In this document: in pieces, positions 12 through 63,987 of the stretch
Layout: each line of letters begins with the position of its first letter
How positions within the stretch are numbered: position 1 is the first letter of the stretch
Source of the DNA: Escherichia phage T2
Strand: one strand, 5' to 3'
Sequence record: NC_054931.1
DNA length: 64,000 nt
Program-made: the position numbers and the translations under genes
The notes under the pieces: generated by a model
The model's database searches: none
What the model saw: only the letters and a program-made list of their open reading frames with translations
Told to the model about the DNA's origin: nothing

Positions 12-2189
12 TTAGGCCGCAAGGGCCTTCATAGTTTTAGCGATTTGAGAAACTTCATCATCACTTAAAGAGTTGCGATATCCGATGAAGTCGGAAACAA
101 TACGGAATTTCTTGGTAAACTCAGCAACCATTTTATCACTGTTTTTTGAAGCATTATTTGATAATACATCAAAAAGATTAGTTACTGTCCAGATGTCATG
201 ACCAATGGTATCTTTTCCACCATTAAAATATACACCCTGTAATGAACTAACCATATTAGCGAGTCGTGTATATTCTTCAGAAACTTCATCTACACTGAAG
301 TACTTCATCATAAAATCTAGCTCAGGATACTTGATAATTTTATCAATATATCGTTTAGCTGAACTTGAATAACCTACATACTTATCATAATCTACATCAT
401 CAAAAGCATCTACATATAAATCGCGTAGAGTTTCAAAAATACATTGGCACTGACCGAGTTCTTTTACCTTTTTCTGTAAAAGCGGACGAATAACATAAAA
501 TTCATTAATGCCAATAAGATTAGCCATACGAATCAAAATATTCATAGATGGATTACAAAGAGATGTAGTACCATCCATAGAGAAAATATCAGAACGATGC
601 ATATACGCTACATAACCAGTAATTTCATCTGCTTCTGACGTAAGTGTAAATAGTTCCTCTTTTTCCCAGCGCCCGTCTTTAATTTCAAACTTAAATGCTG
701 TAGCAGCTTTAGGACGAGGAGCTTTACTTTTAACTACCTTTGGAATATAGCTTTTAACTAAAGCTTCGATTTCTGACAAATAATGAATGTTAACTTCATC
801 ACTTTCAAACATTGCCATAATATCAGGAAGCAAATCAATCTGCGATTCTACTTCTGGGTTAATAAACAGAAGACGCTCATTGTGATGAATATTCAAAGTG
901 TTATTAAATTCACTATCATCTAACGCACGTGCTAATCCACGGACAATATTAACACGATTTTTAATATTATCAATAACAATATTAATTTTTGTTGTATTAA
1001 TACCAAACAGACGATAACTTGATGCAACGGCTGAAGTTTCATGACTTTGCTTAATGCGCTTCAGTCGAGGGTCAAGATTTACTTCATACACAACTCCTGC
1101 ATTGCATAACTTACTATCAGGTTCAAACATACTCTGCATCTTCTTATATGACAGATTTTTAGTCGTGAATTTGACTGAATTACTAATCATATAATCTCGA
1201 GCAGAATACCCCATCTTCATCAATTCACGATATGTGTGACGAGGAGATGTAGATTCTTTAAATCGTTTTACATCTTCATTAAATGCTTGCTCACTGAGTT
1301 CTTTAACTCGCTCAATAATATTTTTACGAGTACGATCATCAAGTGAAAGAGCCTCGCGAGATGGAGCAATATCAAGTGAACCCATTGGAAACTTAATGTA
1401 ATTCACTTCATTGCGAATGCTTAACCAGTTGCGGTCTCTAATAACACCATCAATAGGATAAACAATACCGCCATAGATAGCATATAATCCACCACGATCA
1501 GGCCAGTATCTTTCTGGATTTACGCCGTAATAATCATCAAAATCCGGAAAATAGTCAATTTCACGGTCAAGACTATTAATGATAGCCAAATCTTTGAACG
1601 GCCGCATGATATAAGAAACTTCATAAGCAAAGTTTCTAAAGTCTTTTTCTTCAACTGGAACTACGATTTCAATGCCAGTTTTATCATCTGGACCCATTTC
1701 TTTTACGAATGTAGGTTTAATCTGTGGGCCATCACCATCCATGTAAGCTACATAACCACGAATTTCACCTTTATGGTATGAAGTAATACTAAACGTATCA
1801 GTATAACTAAACGGAGATTTAGAACCTAAACCAAATCCACCAATGAAATCATTAGATTCAGCTTTAGATGAACTGAAGTATGAATTATACAGCCCAGGAG
1901 AATTATCATCACCCTGAATATCAAAATCACTCATACCCGGACCAAAATCTCGACAAACAAATCGCGGATCTAATCGTCCTGGAACTTGAATGATAAATTT
2001 TTCAGGATTTCCATTGAGAGCATGGGCATCAATCATGTTAGTAATCAATTCACGGACTACTGCGCGAATTTTGTTTGTATACAAATCAGATGACAGAATT
2101 TTAAATACTTTAGGAGATGCTGTGATGCTAAATGCTTTTGATTTAGAACCATTACCAAGAATTGTTTCTTTTTCAGTGGTGATAATCAT
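12..2189 (-). CDS. rIIA: rIIA protein (GHKL/HATPase-like N-terminal domain)
   Basis: 725-aa ORF; N-terminal ATPase-like motif [15 protein letters not shown]; length and position match T-even rIIA. Confidence 0.9.
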
Positions 2190-8043: not shown

Positions 8044-9363
8044 TCATACATAAAATACATCATAACGACCACGGGTAACACCAACATAAAGAAGTTGTTG
8101 AGCCAATTCAGCATCTGCATAATGAATACAAGGTGTATAAATGAAAGCACGGTCTACAGACATACCTTGCGCTTTATGGAATGTTGATGCAGGAAGTGCT
8201 TTCACTTTACTGAACTGTGATTTAGCATCCCAAAAATCACTCCATGGAGCTTTTCCACCTTTGTTCCAATTTTTATAAGTTTCTGCTGTTTTACCTAAAA
8301 ATAGGTTAAACTTATATAGTTCTTCATCAGATGAAATTATTTTAATCTTTTCACGATAATATTCATCATCGCCGTAAGTTTCTACTGTTAAATCCCAATG
8401 ACGAATTAAGTATTCTCCAGGAACACCACGAGCTTTAACAAACGTTGATGTATACTCTGCTTCTATAATACGAACTAATTGTCCGTTATTAAAAATAATT
8501 TCTGACACAGGCTTTCCATCAATTTTATATGTTTTAATTAATGGTTCCTGCATTACAATAATTTCACCAACAATAAAATCTTTATCAGTTTCAAAAATCT
8601 TTTTACGAATAATGCTATTTAACTTATCAACAGATTTATTCGTAAATGCCATTACGCGATTTTCAAACAAATCATCTAAAGATTTGACGATTGAAAAATA
8701 ATTTACCATAAAATCGCGTAAAGCGGTATCACCAGTAAATCCACGTACTCCATGCCCGTCAACAACTTTATCATAAATCCACTTACCGTTACGAACGTCA
8801 GTAGCTACATCAATAATAGGAGCATTACTGCGTTTAACTTCAGTGAGTTCACACTGATAAAAATCTTTGTGTGTAAAGAATGGACTGATATAAGCAGTAT
8901 TTTCTCCTGGGTCAACAGGTCTAATTTGCTTATTATCGCCTATTCCAATTATAGTACACCACGGCGGGATAGTTGAAAGCAGAATTTTAAATAGCTTTCT
9001 ATCATACATTGACACTTCATCGCAGATTAATACCCTGCATTTAGCTAAATCTGGTACTTCTTTTTGTTCAAAAAGAACGTTTTCTTCGTATGTTACTGGG
9101 TTAATTTTAAGAATACTATGAATAGTACTCGCTTCTTTCCATGATAGTTTTGAAAGAATCTTTTTAGCTGCATGAGTAGGAGCTGCTAAAATAATACCAG
9201 TTTCACCCGTAGATATTAAAGCTTCAATGATGAACTTAGTAAGAGTAGTCTTACCGGTACCAGCAGGTCCATTAATAGTTACATGATGTTTCTTTTCTTT
9301 AATAGCCTTCATAACAATGTTAAAGGCATTTTTTTGACCTTCGGTCAAATCATCAAATGTCAT
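8044..9363 (-). CDS. dda: Dda DNA helicase (SF1)
   Basis: 439-aa ORF; Walker A GPAGTGKTT; length equals T4 Dda. Confidence 0.9.
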   Translation of the reverse strand: MTFDDLTEGQKNAFNIVMKAIKEKKHHVTINGPAGTGKTTLTKFIIEALISTGETGIILAAPTHAAKKILSKLSWKEASTIHSILKINPVTYEENVLFEQKEVPDLAKCRVLICDEVSMYDRKLFKILLSTIPPWCTIIGIGDNKQIRPVDPGENTAYISPFFTHKDFYQCELTEVKRSNAPIIDVATDVRNGKWIYDKVVDGHGVRGFTGDTALRDFMVNYFSIVKSLDDLFENRVMAFTNKSVDKLNSIIRKKIFETDKDFIVGEIIVMQEPLIKTYKIDGKPVSEIIFNNGQLVRIIEAEYTSTFVKARGVPGEYLIRHWDLTVETYGDDEYYREKIKIISSDEELYKFNLFLGKTAETYKNWNKGGKAPWSDFWDAKSQFSKVKALPASTFHKAQGMSVDRAFIYTPCIHYADAELAQQLLYVGVTRGRYDVFYV

Positions 9364-9672: not shown

Positions 9673-10428
9673 TTATCCTCGGATAAGTTTAAAAATTGAA
9701 CAATTTAGCGGATATCCTCTTTTCAGTTTAAGTTTATCAATAAAAGACAAGTTTTGATACCGCTCTACACCTTGAATAATTTTATCACACATATCATATT
9801 GCATTTCTGCTTCTGACAACTTTTTCACAGTTTTCCAATCCGAGCCTTTAAGAAGAACGTTCAATTTAACAACTTCAGCGCCTTCTGCTATACGAGAACC
9901 ATCAATACGAGCTTTAAGTGCTATAATTCTTAGCTTAATGTCAGAGGTCTGTTTTGATTTAGAAAGCTGAGAAATGTGTTCAATTCGGTTTTCACGTTTT
10001 TTCTGTATAGCTTTAATTTGATTATAAGTCTTTTTGATTTTAGCCCATTTCTTTTCATCTAAATTTAGTTTATGAACTTTTTTCGCAGATGAACGACCAA
10101 TTCGCAAAGCAAACAAATCACGTTTTTCAATTAACTCCTCTAAAGTATAATCAGAACGAAATGTATTATACTTTTTCTTTACTGCAATAACATTCCCTTT
10201 AATGTATCCAACGTTATTATCAAAACGTTCTAATGATAATTTCTCTCCTTCAATACGATTATCAAAAGGTTCTCCCGAGTAAGCGCAAACTTTTTGGTCT
10301 AAAATGTTCTTAATGTAATTGAAGTCTAAGTTAAAATCTTTAGAACGTCTTTTAGCAGATGCCTGAGTATGCTCTAAACGACGTTTAATTTTACGAATTT
10401 GATTATTAGACATATTATGCAGCTTCAT
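9673..10428 (-). CDS. Srd-like protein (candidate by position and size)
   Basis: 251-aa basic ORF between dda.1 and modA; partial HNH-like segment ERFDNNVGYIKGNV. Confidence 0.35.
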   Translation of the reverse strand: MKLHNMSNNQIRKIKRRLEHTQASAKRRSKDFNLDFNYIKNILDQKVCAYSGEPFDNRIEGEKLSLERFDNNVGYIKGNVIAVKKKYNTFRSDYTLEELIEKRDLFALRIGRSSAKKVHKLNLDEKKWAKIKKTYNQIKAIQKKRENRIEHISQLSKSKQTSDIKLRIIALKARIDGSRIAEGAEVVKLNVLLKGSDWKTVKKLSEAEMQYDMCDKIIQGVERYQNLSFIDKLKLKRGYPLNCSIFKLIRG

Positions 10429-10464
10429 ATTTTTCTCACATCTTACGGACGGTTAACTACTTAT

Positions 10465-10494
10465 ACTATAACATTTTTACTTTAACTTGTAAAC
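10465..10494 (-). promoter_or_regulatory. T4-type early promoter upstream of Srd-like gene
   Basis: gtaaac 10489-10494, 18-bp spacer, -10 TATAGT. Confidence 0.45.
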
Positions 10495-10506
10495 AACTTT
10501 ATGTAA

Positions 10507-10534
10507 AAATGCTTTAAAACTTTCGTGGTATAAT
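10507..10534 (+). promoter_or_regulatory. candidate MotA-dependent middle promoter on plus strand (antisense to modA)
   Basis: aaaTGCTTTA (10510-10516), 12-bp spacer, TATAAT (10529-10534) with TGg upstream. Confidence 0.3.
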
Positions 10535-10551
10535 GAATCTAAGTCCTTCCA

Positions 10552-11154
10552 TTATAGATTAAATCTTTCAAAATCAAGAGTATAGATAGTGTATGTTGAA
10601 CACTTTTTGTACTCATATCTATCTGCAATTCTAAATACACTTCCAGCTGGTATCATTACTTCTTGTTCATCTGAAACTAATTCCATATTACGATAACGAT
10701 GACTATCCGGAAACTTAAAGTTTGGATTGTATTCTTTACAGCGTAGAGCTTTTATAGCATACTCCTGGAAATTGAATACCATAGGAGCTTTGAATTCAAA
10801 AATAACTTGTGTGTTATACTCTAAACCGGAAGCAAAATGTAGAGCTATATTTTTATCATATGAAGCTGATACTACTTTATCAAATGTAATAATATCAATT
10901 CCTTGATTTAATAATTGTTTAGTCTCAACTGGAACACCTCTCCAAAGAGGTTTATCGTTTGGTTCCAAACGAGATTTGATTATTTCATTTAACCAAGTAT
11001 GGTCATCTGGTTTGTTGGTAATACAATGAATTAAAAGTTCAATTTCAGATAAATTAAACCCTTCAGAAAGTAATTCTTCACGAATAGAAGCACGCACCGA
11101 TGCATCCATTGATTTTATTTTAAAATCTTTTAGTTGCATTACTGAGTATTTCAT
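10552..11154 (-). CDS. modA: ModA-type mono-ADP-ribosyltransferase
   Basis: 200-aa ORF; R-S-E triad LWRG / SAS / EQE; length equals T4 ModA. Confidence 0.8.
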   Translation of the reverse strand: MKYSVMQLKDFKIKSMDASVRASIREELLSEGFNLSEIELLIHCITNKPDDHTWLNEIIKSRLEPNDKPLWRGVPVETKQLLNQGIDIITFDKVVSASYDKNIALHFASGLEYNTQVIFEFKAPMVFNFQEYAIKALRCKEYNPNFKFPDSHRYRNMELVSDEQEVMIPAGSVFRIADRYEYKKCSTYTIYTLDFERFNL

Positions 11155-11772
11155 TCAACTACCTCAATATCATAAACTTTAAGTGTTCCAAATGAATCGT
11201 GTAATTTTTCTTTTGAAATAGAAGTTATTCTATACTTTCCAATTGGAATCATCCATTCTTGTTCACGCACAATCATCATTAAGTTATCAGTACGCTCTGA
11301 ATCTAGCCCATCAGTATCTTCATACGTGTACTTAAACTCAGTATTAGGAGAAGAAAGTATAATATCGCATATGGTCAGAATAATTAAAAGCTTTATCAGT
11401 TTTTAAGCGAAATATTATTTCAGTGAAATACTCAACATAAGAAAAACCACATGCTGTGTGCAAACTGGTAGTAAATGAATCTACTCTGTTCGTTGAAAAC
11501 ACTTCTCCAACTTGTAAATCTTTAATAAGTTCTTTTGTTGATTTTGATATACCACGATATAACTGATAAGGTGATTTAGTTAAATGCTTTTTAATGATTT
11601 TATTCAATTGCCGATGAAGAGCTTCATTCTTTTTGGCTTCCATACATTGCCAAAGAACTGACTGTTCAAAGTCAGTAAATTTTTCACAAACCTTTTTATA
11701 CATATCATATTGAAAATCAACGCTTTCAGCTTTTATAGATAACTGTTCAACATCTGCAAGATTAATAATCAT
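11151..11772 (-). pseudogene. modB: ModB-like ADP-ribosyltransferase interrupted by a +1 frameshift
   Basis: N-terminal 142-aa ORF has LYRG and SFTTS; catalytic EQEWMIP lies in shifted frame ending in ATGA overlap with modA; span is 3n+1. Confidence 0.55.
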
Positions 11773-11798
11773 GATAGCCTCCGTATACTTCAGAAGCT

Positions 11799-11828
11799 AT
11801 CATATCATCGTTAGAAAGGAAAGTAAAC
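11799..11828 (-). promoter_or_regulatory. T4-type early promoter upstream of modB-like gene
   Basis: gtaaac 11823-11828 with -10 TATGAT-like 18 bp away; UP-like aaagttgtttac context. Confidence 0.5.
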
Positions 11829-11839
11829 AACTTTTTGAA

Positions 11840-12022
11840 TTATTTTGCCCAGGGAGCCCAGGGCGGAGGGTCAAGATGGTATGAAGCTAGTTCTTCTAGA
11901 AGAGCATCTGGGGCTTCAATTCCATAATTCTGTAATACTATACGGTACTCTTTCTTATAATCACTAGAATCATTCTGGATATTCGTAGAATGATTATCTT
12001 CTAACATCTCAAATAAATCCAT
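11840..12022 (-). CDS. hypothetical protein
   Basis: 60-aa ORF. Confidence 0.3.
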   Translation of the reverse strand: MDLFEMLEDNHSTNIQNDSSDYKKEYRIVLQNYGIEAPDALLEELASYHLDPPPWAPWAK

Positions 12023-12030
12023 ATTAATTC

Positions 12031-12501
12031 CTAGCGATAAAAACCAAAATGACGATTAGCTTCAGCAATCTTTCTTTCTTCTTCGGACATTCTCCAGCGT
12101 AGTCCAACATCAAAATGAGCCCAGACCATTTTAACAAATGCGTGTATGTCTTTAATATCTTCAATAATGAATGTTTTACTTTTCGAAGGTTGACTCACTA
12201 ATTTAACCTTATCATCTTCAAACAAGTCAAAAAGACCATATTCATGAGCTCTTTTATAGCCTTTAATAGTTAAAGCTTCAGAAGAAGAAAACGGTGAATC
12301 AGTATTTTGCAAAATATCTTCAGTATGCTTTATAATTAGAATAATATTTTCTGGATATTTTCTTTCTTTTATATCTTTAATTAAAAAATCCGGATTTTCT
12401 GCTAAAGGAATAATTAATGAGCATTTTTTATCAAGTGTATTTACTGATTTACCTTCTTTAGACATAAATTCTATTGAATAGTGTTTTGCTACTTCAATCA
12501 T
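12031..12501 (-). CDS. hypothetical protein
   Basis: 156-aa ORF. Confidence 0.4.
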
Positions 12502-18420: not shown

Positions 18421-18699
18421 TCAGCGATGATTATTTTTATTATTAAAGTTTTTATCGCAATACAGAACATAATTATACTGCATTACACCACCAGACTTAA
18501 GCTGTTTTTGCACTTCAGCTTTCATTTCAGGACGATCACGCTCAACGATATTCATAATATCTGCTTCAATTTGGGTTTCAACTTCAGTCTGATCCGCAGT
18601 CATAGACCATTCACACAAATCTTTATCATAGCCTGCCATAGCAGGCTGAGCAGCACAAGAAGCTAAAGCAAAAATTGTAGCAAAGATAAATTTTTTCAT
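18421..18699 (-). CDS. sp: secreted protein, Spackle (Sp)-like by position
   Basis: start at MKKFIFATIFALA with SD gaggag; cleavable signal peptide; position between 61 and dmd. Confidence 0.45.
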   Translation of the reverse strand: MKKFIFATIFALASCAAQPAMAGYDKDLCEWSMTADQTEVETQIEADIMNIVERDRPEMKAEVQKQLKSGGVMQYNYVLYCDKNFNNKNNHR

Positions 18700-43782: not shown

Positions 43783-43965
43783 TTATAGCGTAATCCATTC
43801 TCGTACTGTCTGAGTTACTACACGTTCTCGAAGCTCAACCAGTTCAACGGTAGGAACTGCATAATACCAGTCAGAATGGTAAGAACCTGAGCGAGATTCA
43901 TTTACAGCCATGTACATTATGTTTTGGACTAAAATAAACACACTGACGATATTGGCATTTACCAT
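43783..43965 (-). CDS. hypothetical protein
   Basis: 60-aa ORF. Confidence 0.3.
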   Translation of the reverse strand: MVNANIVSVFILVQNIMYMAVNESRSGSYHSDWYYAVPTVELVELRERVVTQTVREWITL

Positions 43966-44101
43966 CTTGCACCCAGTCTTCTATTTCGATAGGTTTAAGA
44001 TAGTCGGAAAAATCGAAATCATAGTTTTCCGAAAATGCATCATGGTCTTCGATGATTTCGCTCAGAACTGCATCAACATCTAATTTATTTTCAATAGTCA
44101 T
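43898..44101 (-). CDS. hypothetical protein
   Basis: 67-aa ORF. Confidence 0.3.
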   Translation of the reverse strand: MTIENKLDVDAVLSEIIEDHDAFSENYDFDFSDYLKPIEIEDWVQDGKCQYRQCVYFSPKHNVHGCK

Positions 44102-46277: not shown

Positions 46278-46790
46278 TTACTTAATTAACTGTAAAGCTT
46301 GTTCAAGACGATCCAGGCGATTAACAGATTCTTCCCAAATCCTTTTAGCCTGCTCATATTCTTTCTGCGCTTTATTAGAAATTTCTAGAACTTCTTTATA
46401 AGCTTTTTCTAGTGCAATAACTTCTGGACGAATTTCTACCGGTTCAGGTGAATCGTCAAGACATTCCATTAGTTCCTCAAGGGTAGTTTCTTCTTTAGGA
46501 GTATTCACAATTTCATCACATTTTTGTTGGTAAATTTCTTTATCAGTCGGTGAGTACGCACACTTTACTTCACGAAGACTAACTACAATTTTATATCCTT
46601 CCCAACCGCATATATTCTTAAAAGGATATGTATGAATATTTTCTACTGTTTCCATACAAAGTAATGCGGTCTCTAATTGACGAGTTATAGTGCTAGCAAT
46701 TGAGAAAAATTTATTAATATTCTTTTGGTTAGTTTCTGGTGTAAAAAATTCATAATTCACAAAAAGCTGCTTTATTTTTATCAAGTTCAT
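46278..46790 (-). CDS. hypothetical protein
   Basis: 170-aa ORF. Confidence 0.35.
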   Translation of the reverse strand: MNLIKIKQLFVNYEFFTPETNQKNINKFFSIASTITRQLETALLCMETVENIHTYPFKNICGWEGYKIVVSLREVKCAYSPTDKEIYQQKCDEIVNTPKEETTLEELMECLDDSPEPVEIRPEVIALEKAYKEVLEISNKAQKEYEQAKRIWEESVNRLDRLEQALQLIK

Positions 46791-47217
46791 ATTCTTTTAT
46801 GATAATCATATCAGAAGCCAAAGGATGAATTTGACGATAATCACCATAACATAATTTAGAAGCTGATTTTAGAATTTGCTTCTTAAAAAGTCTGAAATTA
46901 CTAATCCAACGACGAGTAAAAATATTCTCAGGGTCTTCTTTGACATTAAGATGATAAGAATTAACATCACCGAACCAATTATATCCTACTACATCTTTGG
47001 TTCGTTTAATTTCTTTCCCAAAATTACCAAGAATATCCCGATTAACCAAATATGAAAGAAGACGAGACTCTTTAAAGGTTTTCTTGATAACATCTTTATC
47101 TACACGGCTAGAAATTTTACGAATTTCATGAATAAATTTAGCAGAAGAAACAATACCTGCATCAACACTATTGAGCCATTGATTGATAATAGAAAGAACA
47201 CTATTTTGGCCAAACAT
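46750..47217 (-). CDS. hypothetical protein
   Basis: 155-aa ORF; weak SD; overlapped upstream by a short hydrophobic ORF with strong SD. Confidence 0.35.
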   Translation of the reverse strand: MFGQNSVLSIINQWLNSVDAGIVSSAKFIHEIRKISSRVDKDVIKKTFKESRLLSYLVNRDILGNFGKEIKRTKDVVGYNWFGDVNSYHLNVKEDPENIFTRRWISNFRLFKKQILKSASKLCYGDYRQIHPLASDMIIIKEYELDKNKAAFCEL

Positions 47218-48649: not shown

Positions 48650-49198
48650 TCAAGCTTCTTTTAAAACTTCAAAAGCTAAACAGAGATGATGCCCCATATT
48701 GACATAATCTGTAGAGCGAGCTCTGACGTAATAATCATCTCCACGAGTACTAAATTTAAAGCATTTAAGGTCTTCTGTATTATTAGTTTTAAAAATCATT
48801 TGTTTATCTAGACCTTTAGCTAATCGAGCGCCTAATGCTAATAATCGTCGTTGATTTTCCCACAAATCCGCAATCATTTGATCGAATGATAATTTCGGCA
48901 TTAGTCGGCCATAAAGGTCATATCCTTTATTATAATTACGAAGGATTTCACTCGCGTTAATACGAGACAATGCTCCAATTTTATTAAGGGCTTTCATGAT
49001 GCGATTAGATAAACTCATTCCAGACCCGTTTGTTCGCTGTAAATGTTTTTCTAATCCAAATCCAATATCAACTTTAAATTTATCTAAAATTTCAGCATGA
49101 ACATCTCTGTCAATAACATTCAAATCCAAAGTTGGGTTAAATCTATGAAAAAATTTATCTGGCTCTCCACGACGAAGTACAGTCCATTCATTCATCAT
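48650..49198 (-). CDS. hypothetical protein
   Basis: 182-aa ORF. Confidence 0.35.
   Translation of the reverse strand: MMNEWTVLRRGEPDKFFHRFNPTLDLNVIDRDVHAEILDKFKVDIGFGLEKHLQRTNGSGMSLSNRIMKALNKIGALSRINASEILRNYNKGYDLYGRLMPKLSFDQMIADLWENQRRLLALGARLAKGLDKQMIFKTNNTEDLKCFKFSTRGDDYYVRARSTDYVNMGHHLCLAFEVLKEA

Positions 49199-63000: not shown

Positions 63001-63987
<987 letters not shown>

Follow-up and report, generated by a model that had tools for sequence, protein, structure and literature searches.

The modB gene of the mainstream laboratory line of phage T2 is very probably a pseudogene, the outcome of a genuine 2-bp deletion (CA) that had been fixed in that line by 1972. Translation from the normal modB start would run through 134 native residues, continue as MRYYTFFS, and stop. 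The predicted product would retain the NAD-binding Arg73 and the Ser motif and would be without the Glu-X-Glu element, and the T2 line would be a natural modB-null T-even phage in which modA is intact. The deletion is an ordinary lineage-specific gene loss and involves no new mechanism. The family of the gene and what it does are public knowledge, as is the split annotation; a search of the literature on modB together with T2 and frameshift returned no paper that remarks on the split gene.

The lesion in modB and its predicted product

The window analyzed here is a stretch of 64,000 nucleotides of T2 DNA that corresponds to positions 1-64000 of the T2 record LC348380. Its modB region lies on the minus strand and reads as a 142-codon open reading frame (ORF) followed by the rest of a modB-like gene in the +1 frame (Table 1). 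This two-ORF layout, with the shifted remainder ending at modA, had been described in a first-pass annotation, and its coordinates held when we verified them again. The coding strand of T4, T6, and RB14 reads GAC CAT ATC AGC GAT ATT (His134-Ile-Ser-Asp-Ile), against GAC CAT AT--GC GAT ATT in the window, which places the CA deletion, with these three phages as the reference, between window positions 11369 and 11368 in codons 135/136. When the 624 nt of T4 modB are aligned end to end with the window DNA, this 2-bp gap is the sole indel, accompanied by 27 mismatches. The sequence around the lesion contains no homopolymer, and the resulting stop follows after about 25 nt. The first-pass annotation had located the frame break near 11344-11360; the break is real, but only the stop lies there, and the deletion itself is at 11368/11369. 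Similarly, its statement that the 142 N-terminal codons carry the Arg and Ser motifs was right about the motifs (the conserved Ser99 and Ser111 are both encoded within the truncated ORF, as judged by alignment), but 8 of the 142 codons are out of frame, which leaves 134 native ones.

Table 1. Features of the modB-modA region in the window, followed by modB lesions in other public assemblies (positions in modB nucleotides, nt)
Feature	Position	Strand	Remark
Promoter-like site TTTACT-17-TATGAT with TG, upstream of modB	11799..11827	-	consensus match only
Truncated modB ORF	11344..11772	-	134 native codons, 8 out-of-frame codons, and TAA
Arg73-Gly74 codons	11556-11551	-	Arg73 = CGT, 11556-11554; inside truncated modB ORF
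Out-of-frame tail MRYYTFFS, codons 135-142	11370-11347	-	
Deletion junction	11368..11369	-	CA of ancestral ATCAGC (Ile135-Ser136) absent
Premature TAA stop of modB	11346-11344	-	
modB remainder, ancestral frame	11151..11366	-	codons 137-207 and TGA; untranslated
42-codon ATG-initiated ORF inside modB remainder	11151..11279	-	"hypothetical protein" in T2 and SV76 records
GAA-CAA-GAA (Glu171-Gln-Glu173)	11264-11256	-	present only in shifted frame, downstream of stop
ATGA overlap of ancestral modB stop and modA start	11151..11154	-	TGA, 11153-11151; ATG, 11154-11152
modA	10552..11154	-	intact, 200 aa; 195/200 identical to T4 ModA
L014, L017, L018 (three runs, SRR2197754x/56x)	nt 405-413; nt 439		9-bp deletion and 1-bp deletion
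L015 (SRR32236283)	nt 461		TG insertion
L016 (ENA metagenome scaffold)	nt 178-408		replaced
L019			modB reduced to last 152 nt

Both pieces are recognized by the same protein family profile. In a PHROGs search, phrog_832 (RNA polymerase ADP-ribosylase) matched fragment 1 at profile positions 1248-1377 (E = 2e-29) and fragment 2 at positions 1379-1438 (E = 4e-06), and because these positions are contiguous the two pieces are halves of one gene. PF26816 (Mod_ADP_RT) is recorded for the 142-amino-acid product and its homologues; a Pfam-A scan of both modB fragments, intact ModB, and ModA gave no match. The gene lies between modA.2 and modA, and its ancestral stop overlaps the modA start. Other claims of the first-pass annotation stand: the catalytic E-Q-E is encoded in the +1 frame, that frame, with its ATGA overlap with modA, is the ancestral one, and modA is intact. 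Since modA has kept its own GAGG, 7 nt 5' of its ATG, it should still be made, and we expect translation from this ribosome-binding site to lose only the translational coupling to modB. Since nothing resembling a Shine-Dalgarno sequence lies in the 15 nt or so before its start, the 42-codon ORF in the modB remainder is probably not expressed. Upstream of modB, the promoter-like site is consistent with a T4-type early promoter for modB-modA. In a 14-bp hairpin (TATGATAGCTTC...GGAGGCTATCATG; minus strand, 11770-11804), the transcript of the promoter's -10 region is paired with the Shine-Dalgarno sequence and the start codon of modB, and this hairpin could limit the translation of a toxic modB.

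The Glu-X-Glu motif is catalytic in ADP-ribosyltransferases of the R-S-EXE class. E171 and E173 are invariant across homologues of ModB and ModA, and the catalytic residues of ModB were assigned from this alignment and from the R73A mutant of T4 ModB, a substitution that abolishes both ADP-ribosylation and RNAylation (PMC10468400). In the window these elements do not come together in one polypeptide: Arg73 and Ser are in the 142-amino-acid ORF and E-Q-E lies beyond its stop. Judged by sequence, the window modB DNA is a member of the family, and the product it would encode is an incomplete R-S-EXE member. The structural consequences were read from an AlphaFold2 model of P0001, an intact orthologue 95% identical to T2 ModB (pLDDT, 89; pTM, 0.83). 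The best Foldseek matches of this model are Iota toxin Ia, Plx2a, Vis, Certhrax, and C3 (E values of about 1e-6 to 1e-5; TM scores of about 0.5), and as modeled the intact orthologue has an ADP-ribosyltransferase fold of the R-S-E class; when T4 ModB was used to search the PDB by sequence, no match was returned. The elements that follow residue 134 in the model and are lost from the T2 product are helix 131-141, helix 159-171, and strands 173-176, 180-192, and 196-205, and the invariant Glu171-X-Glu173 is placed at strand 173-176, within the lost part. Because the ARTT/Glu171-X-Glu173 element and three C-terminal core strands are gone, truncated ModB is expected to have no activity as an ADP-ribosyl or RNA-chain transferase, deprived as it is of Glu-X-Glu and of a third of the core.

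Recurrence of the deletion and other lesions in the T2 line

A 69-nt junction probe centred on the lesion matched 494 phage records, in a search that was exhaustive for the junction site only. The deleted junction is identical in exactly 5 of the 494, namely AP018813, PV958097, PV648363, and PV648364 (all T2) and OM339528 (SV76), which possibly derive from one distributed stock and so count as independent sequencings, not as independent mutations. The remaining probe matches listed each span 71 bases, two bases more. A 1701-bp stretch around the lesion matches the five T2/SV76 records at 100% identity and several hundred further Tequatrovirus genomes, T6 and RB14 among them, at 97-98%. In AP018813, PV958097, and SV76 the gene is annotated as two coding sequences, of 142 and 42 amino acids, and the 142-amino-acid product is the RefSeq T2 protein YP_010073667.1. 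The identical junction is also present, with 0 mismatches over the gene, in the Logan assemblies of SRR29929066 and SRR24085558, which are unrelated sequencing runs. Furthermore, when Illumina reads of a T2 stock from 1972 were mapped to LC348380, 12 variants were called, including 1-bp indels, and none of the 12 is in modB (Subedi and Barr, PMC8573959). Differences between the window and the T2 record MH751506 at 18431, 24427, 49198, and 63535 coincide with LC348380 variants published in that study (PMC8573959), and it is by this coincidence that the window was identified as LC348380. Since the junction recurs across laboratories and in assemblies of read runs, and since the reads of the 1972 stock gave no variant there, the modB deletion is, on these sequences, a fixed mutation of the mainstream T2 line and not an assembly error. 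Its inferred age is 50 years or more, with fixation no later than 1972.

According to its record, SV76 (OM339528) was isolated from sewage in France. It equals T2 across the modB locus, its genome of 163,826 bp is as long as that of AP018813, and it has all three 2-bp deletions described in this study in common with T2. This identity, the length, and the common deletions place SV76 in the laboratory T2 lineage.

Two further accessory genes of the T2 line carry lesions of the same kind. In 49.2 (window 43898-44101), a 2-bp deletion near 43909 converts ACATGTGGCT to ACATGGCT and leaves ORFs of 67 and 60 amino acids. The gene is intact in T4 and in MH751506, T6 is without it, and the deletion is found in the same five T2/SV76 records and in no others among 117. 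In nrdC.4 (window 46278-47217), a 2-bp deletion near 46765 converts GCAGCTATTTTT to GCAGCTTTTT and leaves ORFs of 155 and 170 amino acids; the gene is intact in T4, T6, and MH751506, and here too the deletion occurs only in those five T2/SV76 records. Over the 64 kb, mainstream T2 and MH751506 differ at six places (9329, 11368/9, 28768, 43909, 46765, and 48652), three of which are exact 2-bp deletions in accessory genes, an unusual mutation spectrum. These comparisons make the loss of modB look like one instance of a general decay that affects accessory genes of the T2 stock, with an odd preference for 2-bp deletions. We speculate that this spectrum may reflect historical exposure to a mutagen (e.g., acridines) or relaxed selection.

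Several 1-bp differences were also noted. At 18431, in sp (spackle), the window has one base more than MH751506 and the T2-Hancock stock of 1972, an insertion that changes the C terminus from ...NKNIIAEVVGE to ...NKNNHR; this insertion is probably private to LC348380, as a stock mutation or a record error. A 1-bp deletion at 63535, at the 3' end of nudE, is private to LC348380 when compared with MH751506 and T2-Hancock, and it creates a 328-codon ORF (63001-63987) extending from nudE into e, the lysozyme gene. The start of nrdC.6 is affected by a similar 1-bp difference, at 49198. At the N terminus of dda, an additional A in an A7 run (L008:9318) truncates the annotated dda product of MH751506, which has 422 amino acids versus 439 in T4; the window reads DDLTEGQKNAFNIV at 9329 and is in frame, and MH751506 is the broken record here.

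Alternatives to loss of function

The first-pass annotation had offered three options, a real pseudogene, a sequencing or assembly indel, and a frameshift-dependent product, and the recurrence of the junction in five records and two Logan assemblies favors the first. To the idea that modB of the phage is truly intact and that two bases were merely lost in the record we give almost no credence. A continuous ORF does exist in the T2 record MH751506, and the private 1-bp differences of LC348380 at 18431, 49198, and 63535 do resemble record-level errors or private mutations. However, an artefact of this kind is contradicted by the identical junction in five other records, which different laboratories produced with different assemblers, by the same junction in two independent read-run assemblies, by the 1972 stock reads, which yielded no variant call at the junction, and by the position of the lesion outside any homopolymer. 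Copying of the deletion among T2 records through reference-guided assembly was also considered, and it was ruled out by the differing lengths and permutations of the assemblies together with the agreement of the Logan assemblies.

If the deletion is in the phage, the gene might still give rise to an active protein. Either a programmed +1 (or -2) frameshift or a bypass like that of gene 60 would give back a full-length ModB-like product some 206 residues long. In favor of this, about 17 codons are shared by the overlapping frames, an almost native protein would result from a +1 shift near CAT-A-TGC, and T4-type phages use translational bypassing in gene 60 (PMC3014915). Nevertheless, we consider recoding highly improbable. 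The break is private to one T2 lineage (5/494 records) and is not conserved among relatives, no slippery motif is present, and codons 129-142 offer, on inspection, no codon whose tRNA re-pairs in the +1 frame. Inspection likewise gave no landing codon downstream in the ancestral frame to match the UCC before the stop, and a gene-60-like bypass in modB was rejected on account of this absence of matched take-off and landing codons. Nor is there a stabilizing RNA structure, as the 121 nt around the break are less stably folded than their shuffled versions (z = +1.0); an Rfam scan of 10300-12100 detected no element, the only hit being a sub-threshold chance match to STnc130 (E = 0.78). It is somewhat easier to imagine, though still unlikely, that the fragments themselves are functional, with the 142-amino-acid piece binding NAD or targets or joining the product of the 42-codon ORF as a split enzyme. 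The N-terminal piece retains four helices, Arg73, and the Ser motif, and the 42-codon ORF begins with ATG and includes EQE, but any such reassembly would be without residues 135-165, including helix 131-141, the 42-codon ORF has no recognizable ribosome-binding site, and a break in the middle of the beta-sandwich core would usually give an unstable protein. The reading of modB as a pseudogene is thus preferred.

Other modB alleles and comparison with T4

The T2 record MH751506 (host, Escherichia coli B) is annotated with a continuous ModB of 207 amino acids (AYD82615.1), and its modB is identical to that of the window over the whole gene except for two extra bases at the lesion site. These bases sit one base upstream of the T4/T6 position, so that codons 135-136 (L002:1030-1040) read ACATGC (Thr135-Cys136) in MH751506 and ATCAGC (Ile-Ser) in T4 and T6. 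ACATGC is found in none of the 494 records besides MH751506, and in a collection of 15 billion proteins the MH751506 ModB is on no contig except that of its own record, while a T2 ModB "repaired" to Ile-Ser is absent. Because Ile135 does not vary among ModB homologues, even those with 32% identity, or in ModA, and because ACATGC is unique, the MH751506 allele is, by this comparison, derived; it is either a compensated allele or a local miscall. The first-pass annotation had held that a single continuous ORF of 206-207 codons would speak against a broken gene. MH751506 formally has one, but with its aberrant Thr-Cys and its origin in a different stock it does not rescue the LC348380 lineage. 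The shortest path to it would lead from ATCAGC through ATGC, the window state after the loss of CA, to ACATGC by a gain of 2 bp, that is, an intragenic second-site suppressor. Alternatively, a -1/+1 pair of changes could have been followed by the deletion in the main line, or a T4-like sequence could have been miscalled locally.

Further modB lesions came to light through the cluster of the 42-amino-acid C-terminal ORF, in T4-like contigs from uncurated assemblies (Table 1). The 9-bp deletion in three of these contigs starts at nt 405, the same nucleotide as the T2 deletion, between ATAT repeats. The contig sequences suggest that modB has been lost repeatedly, and these further independent lesions imply that the gene is dispensable. 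A bolder proposal is that T-even phages repeatedly switch modB off, with at least five independent lesions, and occasionally on again, with ACATGC as a second-site +2 suppressor in the style of Crick and Brenner; we find this doubtful. If it were true, selection would alternate against ModB (for its toxicity or its recognition by host defences) and for ModB (for burst size).

The lesion would make T2 a ready natural null for comparative work on RNAylation and ADP-ribosylation, and it is relevant to how important ModB is in T4, as reported. The state of modB should be weighed when T2 and T4 are found to differ in host takeover or in sensitivity to defence systems. T2 stocks are not equivalent, as those of the MH751506 type and the LC348380 type differ in modB, 49.2, and nrdC.4. 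In databases, the label "RNA polymerase ADP-ribosylase" on the 142-amino-acid fragment overstates its function.

T4 ModB is an ADP-ribosyltransferase and RNAylating enzyme that acts on the ribosomal proteins S1 and L2, on EF-Tu, and on trigger factor, and it has drawn recent attention by joining NAD-capped RNA chains to ribosomal proteins. ModA and ModB were reportedly characterized by Tiemann et al. in 1999 and 2004, and T4 ModA targets the alpha subunit of RNA polymerase. The window ModA is a paralogue of ModB that belongs to phrog_832 and PF26816 (Mod_ADP_RT) and has the same R, S, and E-X-E columns; unlike ModB it is intact, and the two are only about 27% identical. T4 modB, whose product (NP_049636.1) has 207 amino acids, and window modB occupy orthologous loci in the order modA.3, modA.2, modB, modA, srd, and the gene order around modB is the same in T2, T4, T6, and RB14. 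Both genes overlap modA in ATGA, and they agree in the codons for R73/G74 and E171-Q-E173, whereas window modB, unlike that of T4, is 2 bp shorter in codons 135/136 and has its catalytic half out of frame. Engineered T4 carrying ModB(R73A,G74A) shows a burst size reduced 4- to 12-fold and lysis delayed by about 20 min (Wolfram-Schauerte et al., Nature 2023, PMC10468400). Against the pseudogene reading, this mutant phenotype means that a null allele might be expected to be selected against. Like the T2 allele, the engineered T4 allele is expected to cost a T-even phage its ModB activity, but ModB(R73A,G74A) is a full-length, engineered missense protein, whereas the T2 allele is a natural truncation.
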